64,000 nucleotides of DNA from an uncultured Gammaproteobacteria bacterium (GCA_943789445.1 CALSUC010000001.1:468758-532757), one strand, 5' to 3'. Positions 4,557-15,967 are shown, counted from the first letter of the stretch. The notes: generated by a model from the letters alone, not told the origin. Made by a program: numbers and translations.

Positions 4557-4633
4557 GGCTATGTAGCTCAGTTGGTTAGAGCACAGCATTCATAATGCTG
4601 GGGTCGGTGGTTCGAGTCCACCCATAGCCACCA
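4557..4633 (+). tRNA. tRNA-Met(CAU), elongator type
   Basis: GGCTATG acceptor stem, anticodon arm CAGCA-TTCATAA-TGCTG, GGTTCGAGT, CCA end; resembles enterobacterial metT rather than the initiator tRNA. Confidence 0.95.
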
Positions 4634-4755
4634 TAATTCAAAAGCAGTAAAATCCAAATTCAACCTTTCAAAAACAGGCATAATCTTTATAGCCGTTTTA
4701 TTACTCGGTGTTTGTGTACTTAACAGGGAATTGAGTTAAGTATTAGGAGAGGTAA

Positions 4756-5205
4756 GTGATTGAACACATAACAGAACAGCAAATCCTACTACGATTATCT
4801 TTAGCGATGGTTGTTGGCTTGCTGATAGGGATTGATTCTTGGTACAACCGAAGAAATGCAAGTGTTCGGATTTACTGTGTTGTCGCAGTTACCTCAACGA
4901 TGACCATGATGTTGATAAGTAATCAAACTGGGAATCACCCAGAAGCATTTAGTCGAGTGCTTGCAGGTTTAATTACCGGTTTTGGATTTTTAGGTGGCGG
5001 TATTATTATGCGGCAGTCTGAAACCCACCAATTATTTGGATTAACCACTGCGGCAACAATTTGGGGTTGTGGCTTAATTGGTGCTTGCTTAGGTGCAGGG
5101 CAGTACAGCATTGCAGCACACGCAACAATAGCAATGATGATTGTTCTCTATGTTAATTTAGATGGCCTGATGCAGCGTGTTGGGATCAGAAGAAAATCTG
5201 ATTAA
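4756..5205 (+). CDS. MgtC/SapB family membrane protein (divergent)
   Basis: LLRLSLAMVVGLLIG, SRVLAGLITGFGFLGGGII, GLTTAATIWG..LIG..LGAG; AGGAGAGG RBS before the GTG. Confidence 0.85.
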   Translation: MIEHITEQQILLRLSLAMVVGLLIGIDSWYNRRNASVRIYCVVAVTSTMTMMLISNQTGNHPEAFSRVLAGLITGFGFLGGGIIMRQSETHQLFGLTTAATIWGCGLIGACLGAGQYSIAAHATIAMMIVLYVNLDGLMQRVGIRRKSD

Positions 5206-5560
5206 AGTAAGCCTCAAATAGACCTGCCTGTAATTTTAAAAACCAATATTTTTTACTGGTCTCAGTTCCACATAAGATCTGACGAAACCACTGAGGCATA
5301 TTGGCAATAGCTCATTAGGGCACTCAATCATAAGACTGTTATCAGGAATATTCGTCTTGGAATGCTTTTAGGCTGTTTTAGCAGACATAAGTAGTGCGAA
5401 TATTCATATTTTTGCGGCTGAATTTATATTAAAATAGCGTAGTCATGTGCTTTTCTCGGCAATAACATTCCTTAACATGACGATACTGGCTATGTTTTGG
5501 GCCTAAGTGCCCATCACAATGGTTGAATACAGAACTTACCGTGACCGCGTAAATAGATGT

Positions 5561-6235
5561 ATGGCTATTTTTGACTCAGTAGTATTCATTGTGGCTCGCC
5601 GTCCTCATGCTGCGAGTGGCTTTAAGTTATTTCCTTTTTCCTTGTTTATCTCTTGTGTATTCCTCTTTTCTTCTGCGTTTGCAGCAGAGCCCATCAGTCA
5701 GGCTACTGATTGTACTGAAATGGAAGTGCAGGCCGATATTAATCCAGAGCTGAGTAAAGATGAAAATCTGCAGCGACTGTCAGAGCTGTTTTATGAATCA
5801 CTCAATACAGTCACACATTGTGAATCAGCCAGTGATTCAGTGAGTGGAGCACAGTCTTCCACTGAAGGGGGTATGGGTAATGCTGCGGCCGGTGTTGCTG
5901 CCTCAGATATTAGTGGAACAGAAAGTGATGAGTCCCTGTCAGAGAGTGATGCTGATTCAGATCAAAATGCCTTTGAGGGTACTGCTGAGTATGCGTCTGA
6001 GATGGATGCAATCGAGATGGACGATCTCGACATGGCTGAGCGTGATGCAGAAGAGAAAGGGGGTGGGACTAAGGCGCCTAATGATATCCCGCCGGCTGAT
6101 AATGACTCGATATTCGAAAAGCAGATACGTGAAGCAGCAGAAAATGAAACCGATCCAGAGGTCAAAGAGCGTCTTTGGAATGAATACCGTAAGTACAAAG
6201 GCTTGCCGGTAAAACCAGTTAAGGAGAAGTCATAG
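5561..6235 (+). CDS. secreted acidic hypothetical protein (gene 1 of the envelope operon); start uncertain, ORF open from 5507
   Basis: Hydrophobic stretch ending SSAFA-AE (signal-peptide-like), D/E/S/A-rich middle, helical C-terminus DNDSIFEKQIREAAENETDPEVKERLWNEYRKYKG. Confidence 0.75.
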   Translation: MAIFDSVVFIVARRPHAASGFKLFPFSLFISCVFLFSSAFAAEPISQATDCTEMEVQADINPELSKDENLQRLSELFYESLNTVTHCESASDSVSGAQSSTEGGMGNAAAGVAASDISGTESDESLSESDADSDQNAFEGTAEYASEMDAIEMDDLDMAERDAEEKGGGTKAPNDIPPADNDSIFEKQIREAAENETDPEVKERLWNEYRKYKGLPVKPVKEKS

Positions 6236-7539
6236 TGTGGATGTGGGCTAAGCAGGTAATTATTTATTTGCTGGTACTGAGTATGGTGGCCTGTAATTCA
6301 CAAGCCATGTTCAACACTAAAGATGATTCGGTAGACCAAGCAAGCGTTGGCCCTGCTACCTCATCAAAGATTGAAGCATCGACGGTGGATGAACAGCCGG
6401 TTAGTAAGGGGCGTAAGTTAGACGTCATTATTCCTGTGTTTGACTCAGGGCTAGATGATGAGGTTATTGGTGAGACGGTGTGGGCAGAACTGCGACGTGC
6501 AGAAGCAACTATTTTTGCTAATCAATTAAAAGCAACATTGGATGCGACCGGCCAGTTTGCCGCCGTTAGAGTGACGCCAGATGCTAATGCAACCGGTGAG
6601 CTCTATATTCAAGGCAGGATCGAACAGTCTACTGGACATGATGTTGAGATCTCATTGAGTGTTTCAAGTATTGCTGGTGAAGATGTAATCGCACGTTCTG
6701 GTGCGGGTAGCTTCTCTTTCTCTCGATTAATCAATCGTGATGGACGCTCTATTAAAAGCTTTGAACACACGGTCGATAAAAATTACTTCATGGACCCTAG
6801 GAATAATAAGCAGGAGGCATATCAGCCTGTTTTTGATAAAGCCTCTGACTTTGTTGTGTCACTTTTGAAAAAGTATTCAGAAGCTGAAAAGACCGAGTTG
6901 AGCAGTCTATCTGATCTACGTTTTGCCGCTAGTTTTTCTGAAGATGCATTCTCTGAGTATATGGTGACTAAAAAGGGTGAGACTCATTTAGTCGGCATGC
7001 CCAGTATGGATGACCCGATGTATCAAAAAGTCAGGGCGCTTCGAGTGCGAGATCAATTGTTTATCGATAATCTCCAGAACGAATATCAAGGCTTTAACCA
7101 GCAGATTAATGAAAGTTATCTGTTATGGCAGGAGCAAAGTTTAGAAGAGCATGTCCTGCAGAAAGAGGCTAAAGCACGTTCAACCAAAAAGATATTGGGC
7201 GGCATTGCTTTAATCGGTTTAGCCATATTGTCTGCCTCATCTGATTCTGGACAGAACACTGTTGGTGATAACACAGCTGCAACAGCTGCAGTGACAGCAG
7301 GGGTGGCGGCGGCTGGCCTTATTTCATCAGGCATCCATGATCGTAAAGAAGCAGCGATGCATAACGAAACCATCAAAGAACTAGGTCAGTCGGTTGATAT
7401 TGAAATGTCTCCACAAGTGGTGGCCTTTGAAGAACGTGAAAAAGAATTAGTGGGTGACTCGGCAGAGCAATTTCAACAGTGGCGCTCATTTTTGAAGACG
7501 ATCTATGAGCTAGAAAGAACACCGGATGTTCAGTTGTAA
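6235..7539 (+). CDS. hypothetical lipoprotein with a glycine-zipper-like hydrophobic hairpin (gene 2)
   Basis: Lipobox-like LSMVA-C, Asn at +2; internal KKILGGIALIGLAILSA...TAAVTAGVAAAGLISSG; start overlaps the upstream stop, with AAGGAG RBS. Confidence 0.8.
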   Translation: MWMWAKQVIIYLLVLSMVACNSQAMFNTKDDSVDQASVGPATSSKIEASTVDEQPVSKGRKLDVIIPVFDSGLDDEVIGETVWAELRRAEATIFANQLKATLDATGQFAAVRVTPDANATGELYIQGRIEQSTGHDVEISLSVSSIAGEDVIARSGAGSFSFSRLINRDGRSIKSFEHTVDKNYFMDPRNNKQEAYQPVFDKASDFVVSLLKKYSEAEKTELSSLSDLRFAASFSEDAFSEYMVTKKGETHLVGMPSMDDPMYQKVRALRVRDQLFIDNLQNEYQGFNQQINESYLLWQEQSLEEHVLQKEAKARSTKKILGGIALIGLAILSASSDSGQNTVGDNTAATAAVTAGVAAAGLISSGIHDRKEAAMHNETIKELGQSVDIEMSPQVVAFEEREKELVGDSAEQFQQWRSFLKTIYELERTPDVQL

Positions 7540-7544
7540 ATATC

Positions 7545-9002
7545 ATGTTGAAGGAAGAGGTTGAAGTAGCAAAAGGAAATCAGCGTCAAGGTATTTTGAA
7601 ATTCTTGATAGTGCTTTTGCTGACAGGTTTTTTGTTGGTTGTGGTTTTCTGGTTGTTGCCAAAATTGGTTTCAGTGCCAGACGTAGATAATGACAAGCCA
7701 AGTAAAACAACAAATCAAAGTGCAGCCCAGTCGTTAGGCGATCAAGCGAATAATAAAACGCCTGTTATTAGTTCCCAATATACACAAGAGCAGGCGCTGG
7801 ATGCGATTAAGGCATTTGATCAGCAACTGTTGTTAGTAGAGTCTTATCAGGCTTTGCAGAATGACATAGGCCTTATGCAAAGCATCGATAGAGTGCAAAC
7901 ACAGGTAACACAGGCCTTTACCCAAGCCAATTACGATACGGTGGTGCTTGCTCTGCAACAGTTGAGCCTTGATATTGATCAGGCAATCAATATTGCACAG
8001 CTGGCGTTAGAGCAACATCTGAGAACTGCTAGACAACTATGGCATGAAAAGCAGTTGACGCAGCTGCAAGTGGAACTAAAGCAAGCCCAGGCGATTCAAG
8101 CTGATCTGCCTGAATGGGTAGAGCTGAATGATTTGCTGATGGCGTGGCCTGAAGTGGAATCTCTATTAAGCATTGCAAAAACAGCAGGGTTCGAAGGGCG
8201 CTATCAAGAGCAATTGCAGGCTCTGACAAAGATTAGTCGCTTATCAAATGACCTACCTCAATTGACTCAGCAGATTGCAGATGTGAAAAGACAGGTGGCA
8301 GAAGATCAATATAGACAGGCTATTGCCAAGGCCGATGCCGCTAAGCGGATACCTGATTTAAGGCAGATGCGGGCTGCGATTAATATGGCTCGCCAAGTGT
8401 ATTCCCAACGCCCTGAGGTGATTCGTTTGACTCAAGAACTGGTTGAGTTAGAGCGCCAGCAAGACTATCAATTACAGCTAAGTCAGGCCGAGCTAAGTTT
8501 GACTAAGGATCAGTGGGTCTTGGCATTTAAAAACTTAAGTGCGGCTCATGATTTATATCCTAATCAACGAGATACCCAAGATAAAAAGGCCTTTGTCGCT
8601 GTTTACCTTAAGCTAATGCAAGAAAGTGCTGAGATCTTAAATCAACCAAGCTTGCTGACATCTGCGGTTAAGCGAAAGCGTGCGGCGAATATGCTGGATG
8701 GGATGGTTTTATATCGCAGTCTCAGTCTGCGTATGGCGAATATTGAAACCGAGTTGAGTAAGCAGCTTCAGCGTTATTCGCAAAAGGTAACATTGAAGGT
8801 ACTGTCAGATAATAAAACCTATGTCGAAGTCCGTAGTGTTGGCAAAGTGGGTGTTGTTGCAGAGAAGACGATCTCATTACTGCCTGGCAACTATTTGTTT
8901 GAAGGTAAACGCGTTGGCTATGTAACAAAGACGGTTAAGGTGATTATTACTCCTGAGGATCTGGATAAACAAGTGAAGGTGATTGCCAATGAGCGAATTT
9001 GA
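7545..9002 (+). CDS. single-pass membrane protein, long helical/TPR-like region, C-terminal PEGA-like beta domain (gene 3)
   Basis: TM ILKFLIVLLLTGFLLVVVFWLL; Q/L/A-rich helices; C-terminal ISLLPGNYLFEGKRVGYVTKTVKV. Confidence 0.75.
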   Translation: MLKEEVEVAKGNQRQGILKFLIVLLLTGFLLVVVFWLLPKLVSVPDVDNDKPSKTTNQSAAQSLGDQANNKTPVISSQYTQEQALDAIKAFDQQLLLVESYQALQNDIGLMQSIDRVQTQVTQAFTQANYDTVVLALQQLSLDIDQAINIAQLALEQHLRTARQLWHEKQLTQLQVELKQAQAIQADLPEWVELNDLLMAWPEVESLLSIAKTAGFEGRYQEQLQALTKISRLSNDLPQLTQQIADVKRQVAEDQYRQAIAKADAAKRIPDLRQMRAAINMARQVYSQRPEVIRLTQELVELERQQDYQLQLSQAELSLTKDQWVLAFKNLSAAHDLYPNQRDTQDKKAFVAVYLKLMQESAEILNQPSLLTSAVKRKRAANMLDGMVLYRSLSLRMANIETELSKQLQRYSQKVTLKVLSDNKTYVEVRSVGKVGVVAEKTISLLPGNYLFEGKRVGYVTKTVKVIITPEDLDKQVKVIANERI

Positions 9003-10962
9003 AGATCAGATTAAGCAAGCATCTTCACAGCAAAATACACGTTGGCTGATCTCTAGTATTAGCATCTCACTGTTATTGTTGTTTATTGGTTTATACATTT
9101 TTTCTTTAACGGTCTACACCATTCAGATCGAACCACTTGAAGCGGATGAGGTTTCTACGCAGTCGATTGAGACAGGGTTTGGGTTTAGCTATAAACAAAA
9201 AGTATTCGCCTTTTCAGACAAGACCAGTCTGCGTGTTAGTGCCACAGGCTTTAAAGATAAAGAGCTGGTCTTAAAGGACCATGTTAAGGATGGCATTGTT
9301 GCCTTTGATCTAGAGCCTAAGTTAGCGCTGGTTTCATTGCAGACTAAGCCAATGACTGTCGTTGATTGGTATCTTGATGGGCGTTTTGTTGAGCGTGCCT
9401 CAAGCCTGCAACAAGAACTTGATCCAGGTGAATATGTATTCAGTGCACAGTCTAATTACTATCAAGCTATCGACGATAGTATCAGTGTTAAAGCCGGGCT
9501 GGATGTTAATCGCATGTACCAGTTATCACCACTGACAGGTACATTGACGATCCATGCAGATGTACCATCAGCAAGACTTACAGTGGATGCTATGCCCTAT
9601 GAGCTAGGTGATGTGCTAAGTAAGCAGGCAGCCAAGTATGCGGTTGAGGTCAGTGCACCAGGTTATTACTCTATCCAAGAAGACATCTCTTTAGATAAGA
9701 AAGATCTCGCGATTCAGCGACATTACAAACTTCGACCTAAACCTATTGCATTGGCGCTGAACTTACAGCCTAAGGGTGGTGTGTTACTGGCTAATGGTCT
9801 TCAGATTAAACCTGCTGACACTATAAAATTACCGTATCAAAGACAACTTATCTTTGAATACACAAAGCCAGGCTATGTTAGTCAAGTGCTACAGCGTAAC
9901 TTTAAGCCGGGAGAACAATTCAGGCTAGTCTTGTCATTAATAGAACAAAAGGCTGCAGTCAGTATTAACGCAAATGTTGAGTCGGATATTTATATTCAAG
10001 GCCAGCGTATTGCGAGTACACCTGCAACACTGCAGTTGCTGACAAAGGAACAGACGATAGAACTGCGTAAAAAAGGTTATCGCAGTGTTAAGCAAACGGT
10101 CACACCGAATGTTAAACAGCTGACTAAGCTGCAAATGACACTGTATACCGAGGTGCAAGCACGGCTATTGGAGGCGAAGAGCGTCTATGTCAATTCGGTG
10201 GGCACTGAATTTCAACTGATCAAGCCACAGGGACAGCAATTCACTATGGGCGGTTCACGTGATGAGCCGGGGCAGAGGGCGAATGAATTCCAACGTAAGG
10301 TACGATTAGAGCGACCTTTTTATGTGGCTAGTACCGAACTGACGGAATATCAATTTTCAGCTCGTAATGCGAATTCTAATCAACCATTAGTGAACACTGC
10401 ATGGGAACAGGTTGCCGTATTTTGTAATCAATTAAGTCTGAAAGAAGGCTTGCAGCCGTTTTATCTATTTCGTGGTACTGAATACATTGGTTTTGAAGCT
10501 AAGGCGAATGGTTATAGGATGCTTACTGAAGCAGAGTGGGAGTTTATGGCGCGTATCTATAAGCGTGATAAGAAAACTACGTTTGCTTGGGGAGATCAGG
10601 ATCAAGTGCCGGCTGAGGCGGGTAACCTTGCTGATGTCGAAAGTCAGTTAACACGCTATATTCCACGTTATAAAGACGGAGTTAGTGGCCTAGCTAATAT
10701 TAGAAGTTATGCAATGGAATTATCAGGTTTGTTTGATCAGATCGGTAACGCTAGTGAATGGGTGCATGATATTTATGACCTAACGCCACCTGATCAACGA
10801 GTAGTGTATGTTGATCCTCTAGGCCTGCCCAGAGGTAATAACCATGTGATTAAAGGCTCAAGTTATTTGTCTGCCTCTAAAACTGAAGTCAGGGCAGCCT
10901 TTCGAGATGGCTCTGCTAGTCCAAGGCCTGAGTTAGGTTTCCGTTTAGCTCGATATTTATAA
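8989..10962 (+). CDS. membrane-anchored PEGA-repeat protein with a C-terminal FGE-sulfatase (SUMF1-like) domain (gene 4)
   Basis: N-terminal TM; PEGA-like repeats (ELDPGEYVF, TPATLQL...IELRKKGYR); FGE motifs FTMGG, YRMLTEAEWEF.AR, GLFDQIGNASEWV, VIKGSSY, LGFRLAR. Confidence 0.88.
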   Translation: MSEFEDQIKQASSQQNTRWLISSISISLLLLFIGLYIFSLTVYTIQIEPLEADEVSTQSIETGFGFSYKQKVFAFSDKTSLRVSATGFKDKELVLKDHVKDGIVAFDLEPKLALVSLQTKPMTVVDWYLDGRFVERASSLQQELDPGEYVFSAQSNYYQAIDDSISVKAGLDVNRMYQLSPLTGTLTIHADVPSARLTVDAMPYELGDVLSKQAAKYAVEVSAPGYYSIQEDISLDKKDLAIQRHYKLRPKPIALALNLQPKGGVLLANGLQIKPADTIKLPYQRQLIFEYTKPGYVSQVLQRNFKPGEQFRLVLSLIEQKAAVSINANVESDIYIQGQRIASTPATLQLLTKEQTIELRKKGYRSVKQTVTPNVKQLTKLQMTLYTEVQARLLEAKSVYVNSVGTEFQLIKPQGQQFTMGGSRDEPGQRANEFQRKVRLERPFYVASTELTEYQFSARNANSNQPLVNTAWEQVAVFCNQLSLKEGLQPFYLFRGTEYIGFEAKANGYRMLTEAEWEFMARIYKRDKKTTFAWGDQDQVPAEAGNLADVESQLTRYIPRYKDGVSGLANIRSYAMELSGLFDQIGNASEWVHDIYDLTPPDQRVVYVDPLGLPRGNNHVIKGSSYLSASKTEVRAAFRDGSASPRPELGFRLARYL

Positions 10963-10987
10963 AATATCCGAAAAAGGATGCAGTGTT

Positions 10988-11110
10988 ATGAATAAAAAAT
11001 TATTAGTAGGGTTTCTTTGTTTGTTGGTGCTTTGCCTCGCAGTTGTTGGCATTGCCTATGCGGCCAAATTAAGTGTCGGCGTTCCTGTTAGCTTTCCGGT
11101 GGATATTTAA
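10988..11110 (+). CDS. 40-aa small ORF: signal peptide plus a short mature peptide (gene 5; absent from the ORF track)
   Basis: MNKKLLVGFLCLLVLCLAVVGIAYAAKLSVGVPVSFPVDI; AAGGA RBS at 10974-10978; its TAA overlaps the ATG of the next gene (TAATG). Confidence 0.8.
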   Translation: MNKKLLVGFLCLLVLCLAVVGIAYAAKLSVGVPVSFPVDI

Positions 11111-11877
11111 TGACTAAATCAATTCAAGGCATTATCGCTTTAACCCTATCTGCAATCTTAGTCCATGGCTTTTATGTGATTTTAGTGGAGCCTAATGTTG
11201 CATTAGCACAGGCCTTAATCATGCAGGGTGATGGTGAGCAGCAGCGCTCGATTTGGATTATCTTAAAAGACTTTGAACAAGAGGCATGTCTGATCTTAAT
11301 GTTTTGGGCGATCTATCTGATGGCTGAGAAATTTATTCATATCACGAAGACTAATTATTTGTTTGAAGTCGACTTCTTTAAGGACTGTGATATGAGCAGT
11401 GCGGCTATCAGCACGGTAGTCGATGACCTGGAAAATTTAAAAGGTGGCATTGCTAACACACCCTTAATTCGTACGCTTAAAGTGTCACTACGTCGATTTT
11501 TATTATCACAAGATATTCACGCAACGGCAGAGGTTATCGAGGCAGAGTGCGTTGCCTTGGGAAACAAAAACGAAGCCGAAAATTCGATGATCCGTTATCT
11601 GATATGGGCGATCCCATCGATAGGTTTCATCGGTACAGTGCGTGGTATTGGTCAGGCCTTAGCGCAGGCCGATAAGGCATTGGCTGGTGATATATCTGGT
11701 ATGACTAATAGCCTAGGTGTCGCTTTTAATTCAACCTTGGTTGCATTATTTGTCAGCATGATTCTGATGTTTCTATTGTATCAACTGCAGCGTGCGCAAG
11801 ACTCTTTGACTGTCTCGGTGAATGATTATTGTCAGAATAAGGTGTTAGACCCGCTAAGCCGAAGCCGCCTTAACTAG
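11110..11877 (+). CDS. MotA/TolQ/ExbB proton channel family protein (gene 6)
   Basis: WAIPSIGFIGTVRGI and LGVAFNSTLVAL match the ExbB/TolQ TM motifs with both conserved Thr; four hydrophobic segments. Confidence 0.92.
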   Translation: MTKSIQGIIALTLSAILVHGFYVILVEPNVALAQALIMQGDGEQQRSIWIILKDFEQEACLILMFWAIYLMAEKFIHITKTNYLFEVDFFKDCDMSSAAISTVVDDLENLKGGIANTPLIRTLKVSLRRFLLSQDIHATAEVIEAECVALGNKNEAENSMIRYLIWAIPSIGFIGTVRGIGQALAQADKALAGDISGMTNSLGVAFNSTLVALFVSMILMFLLYQLQRAQDSLTVSVNDYCQNKVLDPLSRSRLN

Positions 11878-11886
11878 ATAGATAAG

Positions 11887-12948
11887 ATGCGTCGTAACCC
11901 CACCTCTAACTTAGCGTTCATCGATATCATGAGCTGTGGTCTAGGTGCGGTTATTCTGATCTTGGTATTGCTGAAAAATCAGCAGACGACACCAGATGAG
12001 TTGGTTGAACTAGATCATGCTGCCTTAGATCAGCAGATAGCAGCCCTGCTAAGTCAGCGACAAGCGACTATGGCGAAGACTGAGGCCAAGCAATCTGCAT
12101 TGTCAAAACTGGATCAAGAGATTAATGATTTACGTGCTAGACAGTCAGTCATTACTTCTATTAAGACCACTACACTGAGTACGATTGAGCGTTTGAAATT
12201 AAAAATTCAGTCCAGCCAGCAAGGCCTCAGCACACTAATGTCAGAAGAAAAGATCAATCCGATCGAAACACAAACCATACGACAGGAAGATTATCTGGTT
12301 GGCCTGAATATAGAAGGCCAACGCATTGCTATATTGATCGATAGCAGCGCGTCTATGACCGCACGCGAGCTCATTACCATTACGAATTACAAGGTTCAGT
12401 CAGAGGCTAAACGTAGATCAGCGGCTAAATGGCAAAGGACCTTACGTATAGTCCAATGGCTGATGGCGAGAGCCCCAGAAGATTCAGAATTACTGCTGAT
12501 GTCGTTTTCTGATGAGGCAATCATACAAAGTCAGCCTAAGTGGATTTCAGTTAAGGATGAGAAGGCACTGGCAGTAACTCAAACAGCAGTACAGTCGCTC
12601 ACGCCTTATGGTGCAACGAATTTAGAGAAGGCGATTGCCAAAGTGCTGAGGCAGCGTCCAGATGCAATCTACCTGATAACAGATGGTTTGCCGACCCAAG
12701 GTTTGAGTGAGGCATCAATCTTATCCTCTGGTGGCTGTGGCGGTATAACGGCATCGAAGAAGACAGTATCCGGCGAGTGTCGTGTCACGCTATTGCGGCA
12801 GGCAGCTAGCCTGACGAATTCATTTCGTGGCAAGCTTTCAATCATCTTATTGCCTTTAGAGGGTGATCCTCAGGCCGCTCCAGAGTTGTCTAAGTGGGTG
12901 TTAAATACAGGTGGTACCTTAATCAGTCCAGCGGCCACCTGGCCATGA
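11887..12948 (+). CDS. ExbD/TolR-like TM anchor, coiled coil and vWA domain (gene 7)
   Basis: N-terminal NLAFIDIMSCGLGAVILILV with Asp in the TM; MIDAS LIDSSASM...TPYGATN...LITDGLPT. Confidence 0.85.
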   Translation: MRRNPTSNLAFIDIMSCGLGAVILILVLLKNQQTTPDELVELDHAALDQQIAALLSQRQATMAKTEAKQSALSKLDQEINDLRARQSVITSIKTTTLSTIERLKLKIQSSQQGLSTLMSEEKINPIETQTIRQEDYLVGLNIEGQRIAILIDSSASMTARELITITNYKVQSEAKRRSAAKWQRTLRIVQWLMARAPEDSELLLMSFSDEAIIQSQPKWISVKDEKALAVTQTAVQSLTPYGATNLEKAIAKVLRQRPDAIYLITDGLPTQGLSEASILSSGGCGGITASKKTVSGECRVTLLRQAASLTNSFRGKLSIILLPLEGDPQAAPELSKWVLNTGGTLISPAATWP

Positions 12949-13868
12949 TGCGAAGAGAAGCGCCAGATGCATTTGGTACTGCCTTCTTGGATATCATTTC
13001 CTGTGGCTTTGGTGCAATTGTACTTTTGATCCTGATCTTTAAATTTGAGCCTGATGTCAGTGGTCTTGCTTCAGTTAAAAACGATGATGCAAATGCTAAG
13101 ATTAAACAGCTCTATGGTCTTGTCGATGAGCTGAAAGCAGAACCAGCGATCGATAGTGAGCAGTCTGCTAAGGCCAAAGCAGCAATGTTAAAGACAGCAC
13201 AGGCTAAGCTTGAACGCGCAATGGCCGAGACTGCCAAACTGCAACAGACTTCAAGTGAGCTTAAGAAGCAACTTGGTGCGTTACAAAAACAGATTAAGAA
13301 GCAACAGATCGCAGGTACTTCAGAGGGTGATCAATCACGTCAGGATGATGAGGTCGGTGGTATTCCAGTCGATCGTGATTATGTCATCTTCATTGTCGAT
13401 ACCTCAGGCAGTATGAAAGAGATCTGGCATAAGGTGATGCGTGAAATAGATAATATATTGACCGTTCATCCTCAGTTAAAAGGCTTTCAAGTGATCAATG
13501 ATAATGGCAACTATCTAGTCAGTGGCTATGCTGGTAAGTGGATGAAAGATACACCCAGTATGAGAAAACGTGCGATGAAGCTATTTAGCTCTTGGGCGAG
13601 CATCTCAAATAGTAGCCCAGTTGAAGGGATTGAAACCGCCTTAACGCGCTATTCAAAATATACCAAGGATCTTTCGATTTACGTTATTGGTGATGACTTT
13701 ACCGGCACTAATTTTGATCAGGTTATCTTACGTACGCGGCAATTGAATAAAGGCCGTGCGCGTATCCATGCACTCAATTTCATCTCACCCAATGCATCTA
13801 CTGATCGCTTTAGTACCTTGATGCGAGAGATCTGCCGTGAAAACCAAGGGACCTTCCTGACTTTTTAA
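12945..13868 (+). CDS. second ExbD/TolR-like TM anchor, coiled coil and vWA domain (gene 8)
   Basis: TAFLDIISCGFGAIVLLILI; MIDAS IVDTSGSM...IGDD; ATGA overlap with the previous stop. Confidence 0.85.
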   Translation: MMRREAPDAFGTAFLDIISCGFGAIVLLILIFKFEPDVSGLASVKNDDANAKIKQLYGLVDELKAEPAIDSEQSAKAKAAMLKTAQAKLERAMAETAKLQQTSSELKKQLGALQKQIKKQQIAGTSEGDQSRQDDEVGGIPVDRDYVIFIVDTSGSMKEIWHKVMREIDNILTVHPQLKGFQVINDNGNYLVSGYAGKWMKDTPSMRKRAMKLFSSWASISNSSPVEGIETALTRYSKYTKDLSIYVIGDDFTGTNFDQVILRTRQLNKGRARIHALNFISPNASTDRFSTLMREICRENQGTFLTF

Positions 13869-13897: not shown

Positions 13898-14356
13898 TTA
13901 CCGCTTGGTTAGGAAGTGCTTACTCAGGTACCTATCCAATTCATTGGCAAAGGCTTTGCGGTCGGTTTGCCCATAAGGGGCTTGTCCGCCTGACTGGATG
14001 CCACTGCCACGTAAGGTATCCATGAAGTCACGCATGCTGAGTATCGATTTGATGGTGTTCGCTGTGTACATCTCGCCACGTGGATTCAATGCAGCCGCAC
14101 TTTTTTCGATGACTTCGGCGGCTAAGGGGATATCACTGGTAATCACTAGGTCGCCAGCGGTCACTTGCCTCACAATTTCGTCATCTGCTACATCAAAGCC
14201 ACCGGGGACCTGTAGCATTTTGATATTGCTTAGCCGTGGTTTATTAATCGCTTGATTAGCGACTAAGATAACTTCAACCCCAGTGCGTTCTGCTGCACGG
14301 AATAGAATGTCTTTCGCAGGTACTGGGCATGCATCTGCGTCTACCCAAATCTTCAT
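13898..14356 (-). CDS. yaiI: YaiI/YqxD family protein
   Basis: [43 protein letters not shown]. Confidence 0.93.
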
Positions 14357-14374
14357 CAGCAAGGGCTGGGTAAG

Positions 14375-15967
14375 TTATTGGTCGTCAACAGTAAGTAGGT
14401 ATTCATCATAACTGCCATGGAAATTGATCATCTTCTTATCTTTGATCTCGACGATGTGAGTGGCCAATGAAGACACGAATTCACGGTCATGGCTGACAAA
14501 GATTAACGTTCCTTCATAGTTTGCTAAGGCAAGATTGAGTGCCTCGATCGACTCCATATCTAAATGATTGGTCGGCTCATCCATGATCAGGACATTGGTT
14601 TCTAGCATCATCAGTTTGCCGAATAATAGGCGATTCTTTTCACCACCTGAGCAGACTGACGCCTTCTTATTGAAATCATCAGTGGAAAACAATAAGCGAC
14701 CGAGAGTTGCACGCACGATCTCTTCATTATGATGCGGTTTGCGCCATTGACTCATCCAGTCAAACAAATTCATAGCATGGTCAAAATCGTTATTACTATC
14801 CTGAGGGCAATAACCTAAGGTCGCATTTTCTGACCACTTGATGGTGCCAGCATTAGCCTTTAATTCATCTATTAAGCATCGTAGAAAAGTACTTTTCCCA
14901 GTGCCATTTTCGCCAATAACAGCCATACGACTGCCGGCTTCAATGATAAATCCGCCATCGCTGAATAAAGGCTCATCGTCATAACCATGACTCAAGTCTT
15001 CTACTATTAGGGCTTGGCGTTGTATCTTTTTGCTTTGTGTAAAGCGAATAAACGGATTGACACGGCTTGATGGCTTGATGTCTTCGAGTTTTATCTTCTC
15101 GATCTGTTTGGCGCGTGAGGTAGCCTGCTTTGCCTTTGATGCATTCGCTGAAAAACGGCTGACGAATTGCTGTAGATCAGCAATCTGGGCTTTTTTCTTC
15201 GCATTCTCATTCTGAGAATGTTCACGTACCGCAGTCGAGGCAATCATGAAATCATCATAATTACCTGGATAAACGCGTAATTCACCAAAATCCATATCCG
15301 CAATATGGGTGCAGATAGAGTTTAGGAAGTGCCTGTCATGCGAGATGATGATAATGGTGCTTTTGCGTTCGACAATAACGTTCTCTAGCCAGCGGATGGT
15401 GTGGATATCTAGGTTATTGGTCGGCTCATCAAGTAAGAGGATATCTGGATCAGCAAACAAAGCTTGCGCTAATAGTACGCGTAACTTCCAGCCAGGTGCG
15501 ACTTCACTCATCGGACCGCTATGGAATGATTCGGCGATGCCGGCACTCATCAGTAGTTCGCCAGCACGACTTTCTGCACTATAGCCATCTAGTTCAGCAA
15601 ATTCGACCTCAAGATCAGCAACCTTCATGCCATCTTCATCACTCATCTCGGGCAATGAATAAATGCGATCTCGCTCTTTTTTGACTTCCCATAAGTGGCT
15701 ATGGCCCATGATCACCGTGTCGACCACATTATATTCTTCAAAGGCAAATTGGTCTTGATGCAATTTACCAACACGCTCGTTTGGTGTGATTGATACATTG
15801 CCTGCACTGGGTGCAAGTGTGCCATCAAGAATCTTCATGAAGGTGGATTTACCACAACCATTGGCACCGATCAGGCCATAACGGTTACCTTCTCCAAACT
15901 TTACTGAGATGTCCTCAAATAAAGGTTTGGCGCCAAATTGCATAGTGATGTTTGCAGTAGAGATCAA
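14375..15967 (-). CDS. ybiT: ABC-F family ATPase (YbiT-like)
   Basis: [12 protein letters not shown] start; two ABC domains ([18 protein letters not shown]); [11 protein letters not shown]; no TM segments. Confidence 0.93.

Follow-up and report, generated by a model that had tools for sequence, protein, structure and literature searches.

An eight-gene operon of an uncultured gammaproteobacterium and the proton-driven envelope machine that it most likely encodes

The subject of this analysis is a set of eight genes, here called g1 to g8, at positions 5507-13868 of a 64,000-nucleotide stretch of DNA from an uncultured Gammaproteobacteria bacterium (GCA_943789445.1, CALSUC010000001.1:468758-532757); the whole of that stretch is referred to as the window. 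A scan of the window for open reading frames (ORFs) finds these eight, all on the plus strand and either overlapping or spaced by no more than 25 nt, and on the minus strand within 5507-13868 all ORFs are of 86 aa or fewer. The genes, with the evidence on which each is described, are as follows.

5507-6235, plus strand (alternative starts at 5519 and 5561): g1, an acidic secreted protein, mostly of low complexity (ORF, composition and orthologs)
6235-7539, plus strand: g2, a lipoprotein with a lipobox ...VAC at Cys20 (ORF, lipobox and AlphaFold2 model)
7545-9002, plus strand: g3, a membrane-anchored tetratricopeptide repeat (TPR) protein (ORF, profile and AlphaFold2 model)
8989-10962, plus strand: g4, a membrane-anchored PEGA arm with a C-terminal formylglycine-generating enzyme (FGE) fold (ORF and Pfam)
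10988-11110, plus strand: g5, a pre-peptide of 40 aa (ORF, ribosome-binding site, signal-peptide-like N-terminus and conserved tail)
11110-11877, plus strand: g6, a channel A subunit of the MotA/TolQ/ExbB family, 255 aa (ORF and PF01618)
11887-12948, plus strand: g7, B-type subunit 1 (ORF, VWA_2 and a TolR/ExbD-like helix)
12945-13868, plus strand: g8, B-type subunit 2, a paralog of g7 (ORF and hhalign to g7)

The junctions between these genes are uniformly tight. The first two genes meet in TAGTG (6233-6237), g3 and g4 overlap by 14 nt (8989-9002), g5 and g6 share TAATG (11108-11112) and g7 and g8 share ATGA (12945-12948), the remaining intergenic gaps being 5 nt (g2/g3), 25 nt (g4/g5) and 9 nt (g6/g7). 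A strong internal terminator was looked for in the operon and not found. An earlier description of this locus, made from the sequence alone and called here the original prediction, had proposed eight same-strand genes with touching or overlapping ends; this is borne out, and every junction that it quoted is exact. The eight genes are one real operon. They are also represented in metatranscriptomes: runs of marine, seawater and aquatic type, drawn from several studies, contain 41-83% of the operon's sampled words, and contigs assembled from at least three studies together cross all seven gene junctions.

5437-8378: contig joining g1, g2 and g3
7244-9237: contig joining g2, g3 and g4
10552-11425 and 10621-11578: two contigs joining g4, g5 and g6
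11109-11922: contig joining g6 and g7
11902-12973: contig joining g7 and g8

Contig depth on the operon is similar to that on the neighbouring genes, and the contigs are compatible with a single transcript.

The same cassette recurs across a wide range of bacteria. When one genome per species was scanned, at least 422 species were found to encode a relative of g6, and our locus analysis, from which the counts of orthologs and loci below are taken, covers the best 80 of these loci (of at least 422), 59 of them with enough flanking sequence. The 80 best loci belong to Alpha-, Beta-, Gamma- and Zetaproteobacteria, Candidatus Binatia and one 'delta proteobacterium', and seawater, vents and sponges are the source of many carriers. 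Those that have been cultured include Magnetovibrio blakemorei MV-1, Denitrobaculum tricleocarpae R148 and, according to PMC12204202, Idiomarina. The seven large genes are colinear within 9.5 kb in 52 of the 59 loci. Co-occurrence of the gene families in other genomes had been named by the original prediction as a check on its proposal, and the families do co-occur, in the same order; we take this recurrence of gene order to be far beyond chance. The seven exceptions comprise insertions between g4 and g5 (L026 and L069), an inverted block (L057), a broken g4 (L014) and three loci in which g1 is too diverged to be detected (L051, L056 and L072). Both insertions interrupt the cassette in metagenome-assembled genomes (MAGs) of sponge symbionts (L026:7360-9850 and L069, about 4760-9880), and the insert in L026 consists of two opposite-strand genes built of many TPR repeats. 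In L057 the strand that holds g4-g5-g6 is opposite to that of the homologs of g1-g3, g7 and g8, the cassette being split or inverted in two units.

At the centre of the cassette is a putative ion-driven motor. The g6 protein matches the Pfam family MotA_ExbB (PF01618) at 1.8e-12 and 47.5 bits, against a cutoff of 22.9, and shows strong conservation (mean column identity 73%); residues P169, T176 and T209 and a KDxEQE motif (residues 53-58) are invariant in 77 orthologs. Among solved structures the g6 profile found a sole match, B. subtilis MotA at E 0.5, and, after this search had missed the solved ExbB and TolQ structures, g6 was aligned directly to E. coli TolQ with hhalign; T176 and T209 then coincide with T145 and T178 respectively (E 1e-4, prob 56). 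T145 and T178 of TolQ are functionally important threonines. The acidic motif belongs to a longer invariant stretch, ILKDxEQE (residues 51-58; 11260-11283), which stands just before the second hydrophobic segment and would be periplasmic if the topology of g6 is MotA-like.

No TolR, ExbD or MotB follows the channel gene in Pfam and NCBIfam searches of the eight proteins and the flanks; their place is taken by two paralogous von Willebrand factor A (vWA) proteins of 307-353 aa. The first of these, g7, matches VWA_2 (5.9e-8) and also VWA_3, and consists of a TolR/ExbD-like membrane helix (Asp13 in AFIDIMSCG), roughly 100 residues of helical stalk and a vWA domain whose metal ion-dependent adhesion site (MIDAS) reads DSSAS at 152-156. 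The second, g8, has no match in a Pfam scan and is recognised by hhalign to g7 (prob 100, E 2.9e-52), in an alignment that spans helix, stalk and vWA domain and thus identifies the two as full-length paralogs; its helix carries Asp16 in AFLDIISCG, and its stalk bears a divergent vWA domain with the MIDAS motif DTSGS. Both helix motifs parallel VPLLDVLL of E. coli TolR. The helix Asp of g8 is invariant in 78 of 78 orthologs, and that of g7 is Asp in all 52 of its 77 orthologs that cover the position, the other 25 having an N-terminus shortened by start-codon choice in our analysis. The DxSxS motif of the MIDAS is invariant in both families. In g7, D152, S154, S156, C298, W352 and P353 are kept in 77 of 77 orthologs; a Cys pair and a C-terminal WP are conserved, and the g7 family at large has 616 representatives (50% clustering, E ≤ 1e-3), with 137 at E ≤ 1e-30, nearly all of them full length. 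Helix Asp and MIDAS Asp lie a median of 135 residues apart in g7 and g8 alike, with a narrow spread, and from this equal spacing we read a paired stalk of fixed length.

The five genes upstream, g1 to g5, encode the putative partners of this motor and recur with it across bacterial classes. The g1 protein has 48 Asp and Glu residues against 22 Lys and Arg and a signal-peptide-like N-terminus; a Cys pair and the C-terminal motif DIPPADNDS...LWNEYRKYKGLP are both conserved. Its true start is likely to be the ATG at 5561, which gives 224 aa, the ortholog median, and an ortholog of g1 is the first gene in most loci. In g2 a lipobox-like motif is present in 57 of 67 orthologs, with a residue at +2 that is never Asp. 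The AlphaFold2 model of g2 (predicted local distance difference test score, pLDDT, 80.8) shows an alpha/beta domain at the N-terminus and a long helical hairpin whose tip (about 320-368) is hydrophobic and rich in Gly and Ala, and the C-terminus is conserved as TPxVQL. The top Foldseek matches, to which the alpha/beta domain bears a weak resemblance, are a chain of the LPHT ring of the flagellum, the PelC dodecamer and the N-domain of TolB (E 3e-3 to 3e-2, prob 0.95-0.99), all of them ring-forming or outer-membrane-associated modules. No Pfam family was found among 66 g2 orthologs, the g2 profile had no match among Protein Data Bank sequences, and g1, g2 and g5 have no match in Pfam, NCBIfam or PADLOC.

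The next two partners are predicted to be anchored in the inner membrane. In the AlphaFold2 model of g3 (pLDDT 91.2) an N-terminal membrane anchor and a disordered linker lead to a TPR-like solenoid (about 81-412) and a C-terminal beta-sandwich of transthyretin/PEGA-like type (415-480); the g3 profile matches consensus TPR proteins at 6e-10, and Foldseek returns the transthyretin-like domain of carboxypeptidase D/N (2e-4), BamD, PilF and P58IPK. The g4 protein has an N-terminal anchor, a PEGA/beta-sandwich arm with two PEGA repeats recognised by Pfam (9.3e-14), and an FGE-sulfatase domain (8.6e-25). The two catalytic cysteine positions of FGE, with which g4 ...KGSSYLSASKTEVR... presumably aligns, are never Cys in 73 orthologs, and from this we conclude that the FGE domain is a non-catalytic binding module and not a formylglycine-generating enzyme. 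A TonB/TolA-type SHLS anchor was considered for g3 and g4 and rejected, because neither helix contains a His. Much of what had been proposed for these proteins stands: the domain calls of the original prediction (MotA_ExbB in g6, VWA_2 in g7, PEGA and FGE in g4, and g8 through its paralogy to g7) were correct, and its view that the products are exported or membrane-bound agrees with the hydrophobic N-terminal segments, the lipobox of g2 and the acidic character of g1. Its description of two single-pass proteins with PEGA-like domains needs a small correction: g4 does carry PEGA repeats, and g3 consists chiefly of a TPR solenoid, with a single beta-sandwich at the C-terminus.

The fifth partner is the micro-peptide g5. 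A ribosome-binding site, AAGGA, lies 10 nt upstream of its start, and its stop overlaps the start of g6; the N-terminus resembles a signal peptide (MNKK, a hydrophobic core and an AYA/A site), the predicted mature peptide is AKLSVGVPVSFPVDI, and the tail ends ...VSFPVDI-stop. A homologous ORF with (S/T)FP(V/S)DI lies directly 5' of g6 in 78 of 78 loci, and in 76 of them the stop comes right after the motif. The N-terminal part of the orthologs varies freely, as signal peptides do, and about 12 residues at the end hardly change from one bacterial class to another. A six-frame search of the window finds motif and stop together a single time, and of 76 such occurrences in 1.3 Mb of loci 74 are at the g5 position. 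A g5 profile finds 442 protein clusters at E ≤ 10, the best 120 of the 442 at ≤ 3e-8; none of these best 120 carries a Pfam domain, and nearly all of those with a name are called 'hypothetical'. In the reverse direction, starting from two g5-like peptides in large genomes, the complete eight-gene cassette was recovered. Because the tail is conserved, the motif is specific to its position and the reciprocal lookup yields the cassette, we conclude from these comparisons that g5 is a real, selected component. No description of it was found in the literature searched.

Two further observations concern the peptide. In two Ca. Binatia MAGs (L043:9751-9981 and L044:9816-9998) the ORF continues for 7-17 codons past ...SFPVDI, which may reflect a genuine lengthening of the C-terminus or a fault in the assembly; the stop is retained in other Binatia genomes. 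We also considered that g5 might be a pseudo-substrate of the dead FGE domain, given the resemblance of LNSPAS to the sulfatase motif LCTPSR, and dropped this idea because the NSP part is not conserved, being absent from g5 in the window's own clade (VGVPVS, VGTAVT) and in the FPSDI group; only (S/T)FPxDI is invariant. The conserved tail may be a MIDAS ligand through its Asp, or a C-terminal peptide bound by the TPR protein g3.

The operon is set among genes of other kinds, and the following features surround it.

4557-4633: tRNA-Met, the only Rfam match (at 4557-4630)
4756-5205: an MgtC-family membrane protein gene (PF02308, 3.3e-26)
5403-5430, plus strand: a sigma-70-like promoter match, TTCATA-16-TATATT, the sole such match 5' of g1
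13898-15967, minus strand: a DUF188 (YaiI-like) gene and an ABC-F ATPase gene, convergent with the operon, which end the unit downstream

The promoter is a consensus match only, of a kind that is rarer in this region than in its shuffles. A metatranscriptome contig at 12693-14018 connects g7/g8 with the DUF188 gene. The operon had been said to lie just downstream of tRNA-Met, and the tRNA is indeed present on the 5' side, but the mgtC-family gene intervenes. It had also been placed outside the core synteny, and this is not shown: there is no GC anomaly of the operon relative to its flanks and no integrase, for which reason a genomic island, which we considered, is not supported, although the flanks do vary. 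Cassette flanks are common only to contigs of the same species. Even in a close relative (L005:4048-12063), whose proteins are 86-96% identical, the cassette is followed by an aminotransferase gene, uvrB, thrS, infC and rplT and not by the DUF188 and ABC-F genes, which implies that its position is unstable even at short evolutionary distance. In another locus (L086:700-3500) the cassette comes directly after RelB/ParE, MazE/PIN and AbiJ-like genes, a neighbourhood of defence or toxin-antitoxin type that is unseen in the other loci examined.

The motor core of this operon is already in print as an in-silico prediction, and so it has not gone unnoticed. 'TPH-vWA' motors were predicted in 2025 (Mol Biol Evol; PMC12204202), mainly in Proteobacteria and Verrucomicrobia, as systems in which the vWA genes mostly form heterologous pairs with a TolR-like trans-pore helix and a conserved Asp, which in AlphaFold3 models is ringed by pore threonines. 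Every sequence-level defining feature of that family is present here: a tolQ-like channel gene without tolR, exbD or motB, then a heterologous pair of membrane-tethered vWA proteins, with the conserved helix Asp and the conserved pore threonines, again mainly in Proteobacteria. The difference is that the genes described here form a fixed eight-gene cassette, whereas the text of that paper contains neither PEGA nor sulfatase/FGE (0 occurrences), makes no reference to a lipoprotein, acidic protein or FPVDI micro-peptide, and names a TPR gene only for another, PVC-group, vWA family. PMC12204202 was all the literature found on the eight-gene combination or on later experiments. The operon had been called apparently uncharacterised, and experimentally that is so, no characterised system fitting it, but its motor core had already been predicted. 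The present analysis adds that the composition of eight genes is fixed, that g2 and g3 can be assigned folds and that the two stalks are equally long; its main addition is the invariant micro-peptide.

Compared with the systems that have been characterised, the locus fails on defining components for membership of the Ton, Tol-Pal, Mot, Agl-Glt, type IX secretion (T9SS) and Zorya families alike, and, as had been stated, no TonB, TolA/TolB/Pal or flagellar family occurs among the eight proteins according to Pfam and NCBIfam; the same searches find no ExbD or MotB. With ExbB-ExbD-TonB it has in common a MotA_ExbB channel and the Asp helix motif (F/L)(I/L)D(I/V), but it is without an ExbD domain, TonB or a TonB-dependent receptor, and ExbB models reach only E 0.04; it differs from flagellar MotAB and PomAB in having no OmpA/MotB domain and in scoring 13 bits with the MotA equivalog against a cutoff of 340. 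The likeness to Tol-Pal (YbgC-TolQ-TolR-TolA-TolB-Pal-CpoB) takes in a TolQ-type channel with the same two pore threonines and a partner helix with an Asp, long periplasmic proteins with an inner-membrane anchor, a TPR protein comparable to CpoB, a lipoprotein, a TolB-N-like fold and the lack of an outer-membrane barrel. On the other hand, the TolR periplasmic domain, TolA, the TolB beta-propeller and the OmpA-like domain of Pal are all missing, the TolB-N-like fold of g2 being a weak match, the B subunits are two vWA paralogs, and there are added PEGA/FGE, acidic-protein and micro-peptide subunits.

Taken together, the eight-gene operon most likely builds a proton-driven cell-envelope machine, and we think it probable that this is a Tol-Pal-like trans-envelope machine, driven by proton-motive force, through which the inner membrane is coupled to an assembly of lipoprotein at the outer membrane so as to tether or remodel the envelope. 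Such coupling is favoured because the logic of the cassette mirrors that of Tol-Pal and because it includes no outer-membrane barrel, ATPase, adhesin or cytoplasmic effector; motility, secretion or transport, and defence are less likely functions and are not favoured. The self-contained ion-driven envelope machine of the original prediction survives in this form, in that the parts list and the co-occurrence of the genes fit it, but its motility and secretion variants would look for a barrel, an adhesin or an ATPase that the cassette does not offer. We envisage that g6 would form a pentamer around a g7/g8 heterodimer, in a 5:1:1 arrangement as in other 5:2 motors, and that proton flow through the Asp/Thr site would turn or strain the dimer. 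The stalk, about 15 nm long if fully helical, would then carry two MIDAS heads toward the cell wall and outer membrane, where they could grip an acidic ligand on a partner, for which the lipoprotein g2, the acidic g1 and the Asp of processed g5 are candidates. The g3 and g4 proteins would serve as scaffolds anchored in the inner membrane, and g2 would form the assembly on the outer-membrane side.

Several points weigh against this interpretation. The channel is remote from solved A subunits, as the values given above for B. subtilis MotA (E 0.5) and for the TolQ alignment (prob 56) indicate; the fold matches of g2 are weak (E 3e-3, TM-score 0.2-0.47) and concern one domain only. The metatranscriptome contigs are strandless and may contain DNA, and one of them (4721-6160) also joins mgtC to g1. 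The stoichiometry, the rotation and the MIDAS ligand, finally, are inferred.

Among the alternatives, energised uptake or export is unlikely but has some attractions. Here the vWA heads would act like TonB to open an outer-membrane gate encoded elsewhere, or g5 or g1 would itself be processed and exported, as cargo or as a signal. The vWA proteins of TPH-vWA motors have been framed as TonB/TolA-like force transducers (PMC12204202), g5 and g1 both combine a signal-peptide-like N-terminus with a conserved C-terminal motif, and FGE-fold proteins can act on periplasmic peptides, NCBIfam naming PvdO as a dihydropyoverdine dehydrogenase. The FGE catalytic cysteines, however, are absent in all g4 orthologs, and the invariance of the g5 tail across classes is more like that of a structural contact than that of a diversifying signal. 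Nor is there a TonB-dependent receptor, outer-membrane channel or ABC/ATPase in or adjoining the cassette (59 loci), the flanks of which vary.

We find it improbable, too, that the operon encodes an engine of surface motility or adhesion like Agl-Glt or the T9SS/gliding machinery, in which the motor would move an FGE/PEGA track or ring and expose the vWA domains as adhesin heads. The layout of one A and two different B genes is that of AglR, AglQ and AglS in Myxococcus, and FGE-fold GldK/PorK ring proteins contact GldM (both PMC9389320); a vWA adhesin, CglB, is reported to act in Myxococcus gliding (PMC9946355). Yet AglQ and AglS are short, TolR-like and without vWA domains, and no Glt-like partners belong to this cassette. 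The T9SS/gliding systems GldLM(PorLM)-GldK/N(PorK/N) likewise pair an ion-driven motor with a cysteine-less periplasmic FGE-fold protein, and g4 does match the GldK model TIGR03525 weakly (1.4e-12), but at 47.7 bits against a cutoff of 350, and it is anchored in the inner membrane, carries PEGA repeats and has no lipobox. The cassette is also without GldL, GldM and GldN, Glt proteins, a SprA-type translocon, an outer-membrane barrel or a surface adhesin, the vWA heads have their tether in the inner membrane and are not exposed on the surface, and planktonic marine lineages and sponge symbionts are among the carriers.

A Zorya-like anti-phage system, with a MotA-like sensor motor that detects perturbation of the envelope, is very improbable: the likeness consists of a distant MotA-family A subunit, with weak ZorA matches in the channel core (PADLOC ZorA2 at 6.3e-5 and 20 bits, NCBIfam ZorA_4 at 0.01), and of the toxin-antitoxin and AbiJ-like neighbours in L086, but g6 has 255 aa and lacks the long cytoplasmic tail of ZorA, there is no ZorB peptidoglycan-binding domain, no ZorC, ZorD, ZorE or other effector, no cytoplasmic nuclease or helicase and no other Zor match, the flanks are mostly housekeeping genes, the mean column identity of g6 is as high as 73%, and no plasmid copy (of g7, at E ≤ 1e-10) was found.

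Coupling of the two membranes by a Tol-Pal-like machine is the reading that we prefer; a bolder one is offered only tentatively. It is possible, if rather doubtful, that the eight genes by themselves supply every part of a widespread ion-driven trans-envelope machine that forms a class of its own. In it the heterodimeric vWA axle would be the force transducer, and a processed periplasmic peptide of about 15 residues, with an invariant free C-terminus ...FPVDI, would be an obligate subunit by which the motor is latched to both the PEGA/FGE arm and a lipoprotein ring of PelC-like type, g5 acting either as the acidic ligand of the MIDAS or as a C-terminal peptide clamped by the TPR protein. If true, this class would stand apart from Ton, Tol-Pal, Mot, Agl-Glt, T9SS and Zorya. 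The two Asp residues, the two MIDAS sites and the invariant peptide tail offer experimental handles, and cultured carriers exist.

Ion-driven 5:2 motors drive flagella, nutrient import, outer-membrane maintenance, gliding and one phage defence system, and each family that has come to be understood has revealed a new route by which energy is delivered to the energy-poor outer envelope. In the operon described here a stalk of constant length that ends in metal-dependent adhesion heads would stand in for the usual B subunit. At least several hundred species are carriers, many of which are abundant marine bacteria or sponge symbionts, and the operon is seen in seawater metatranscriptomes.

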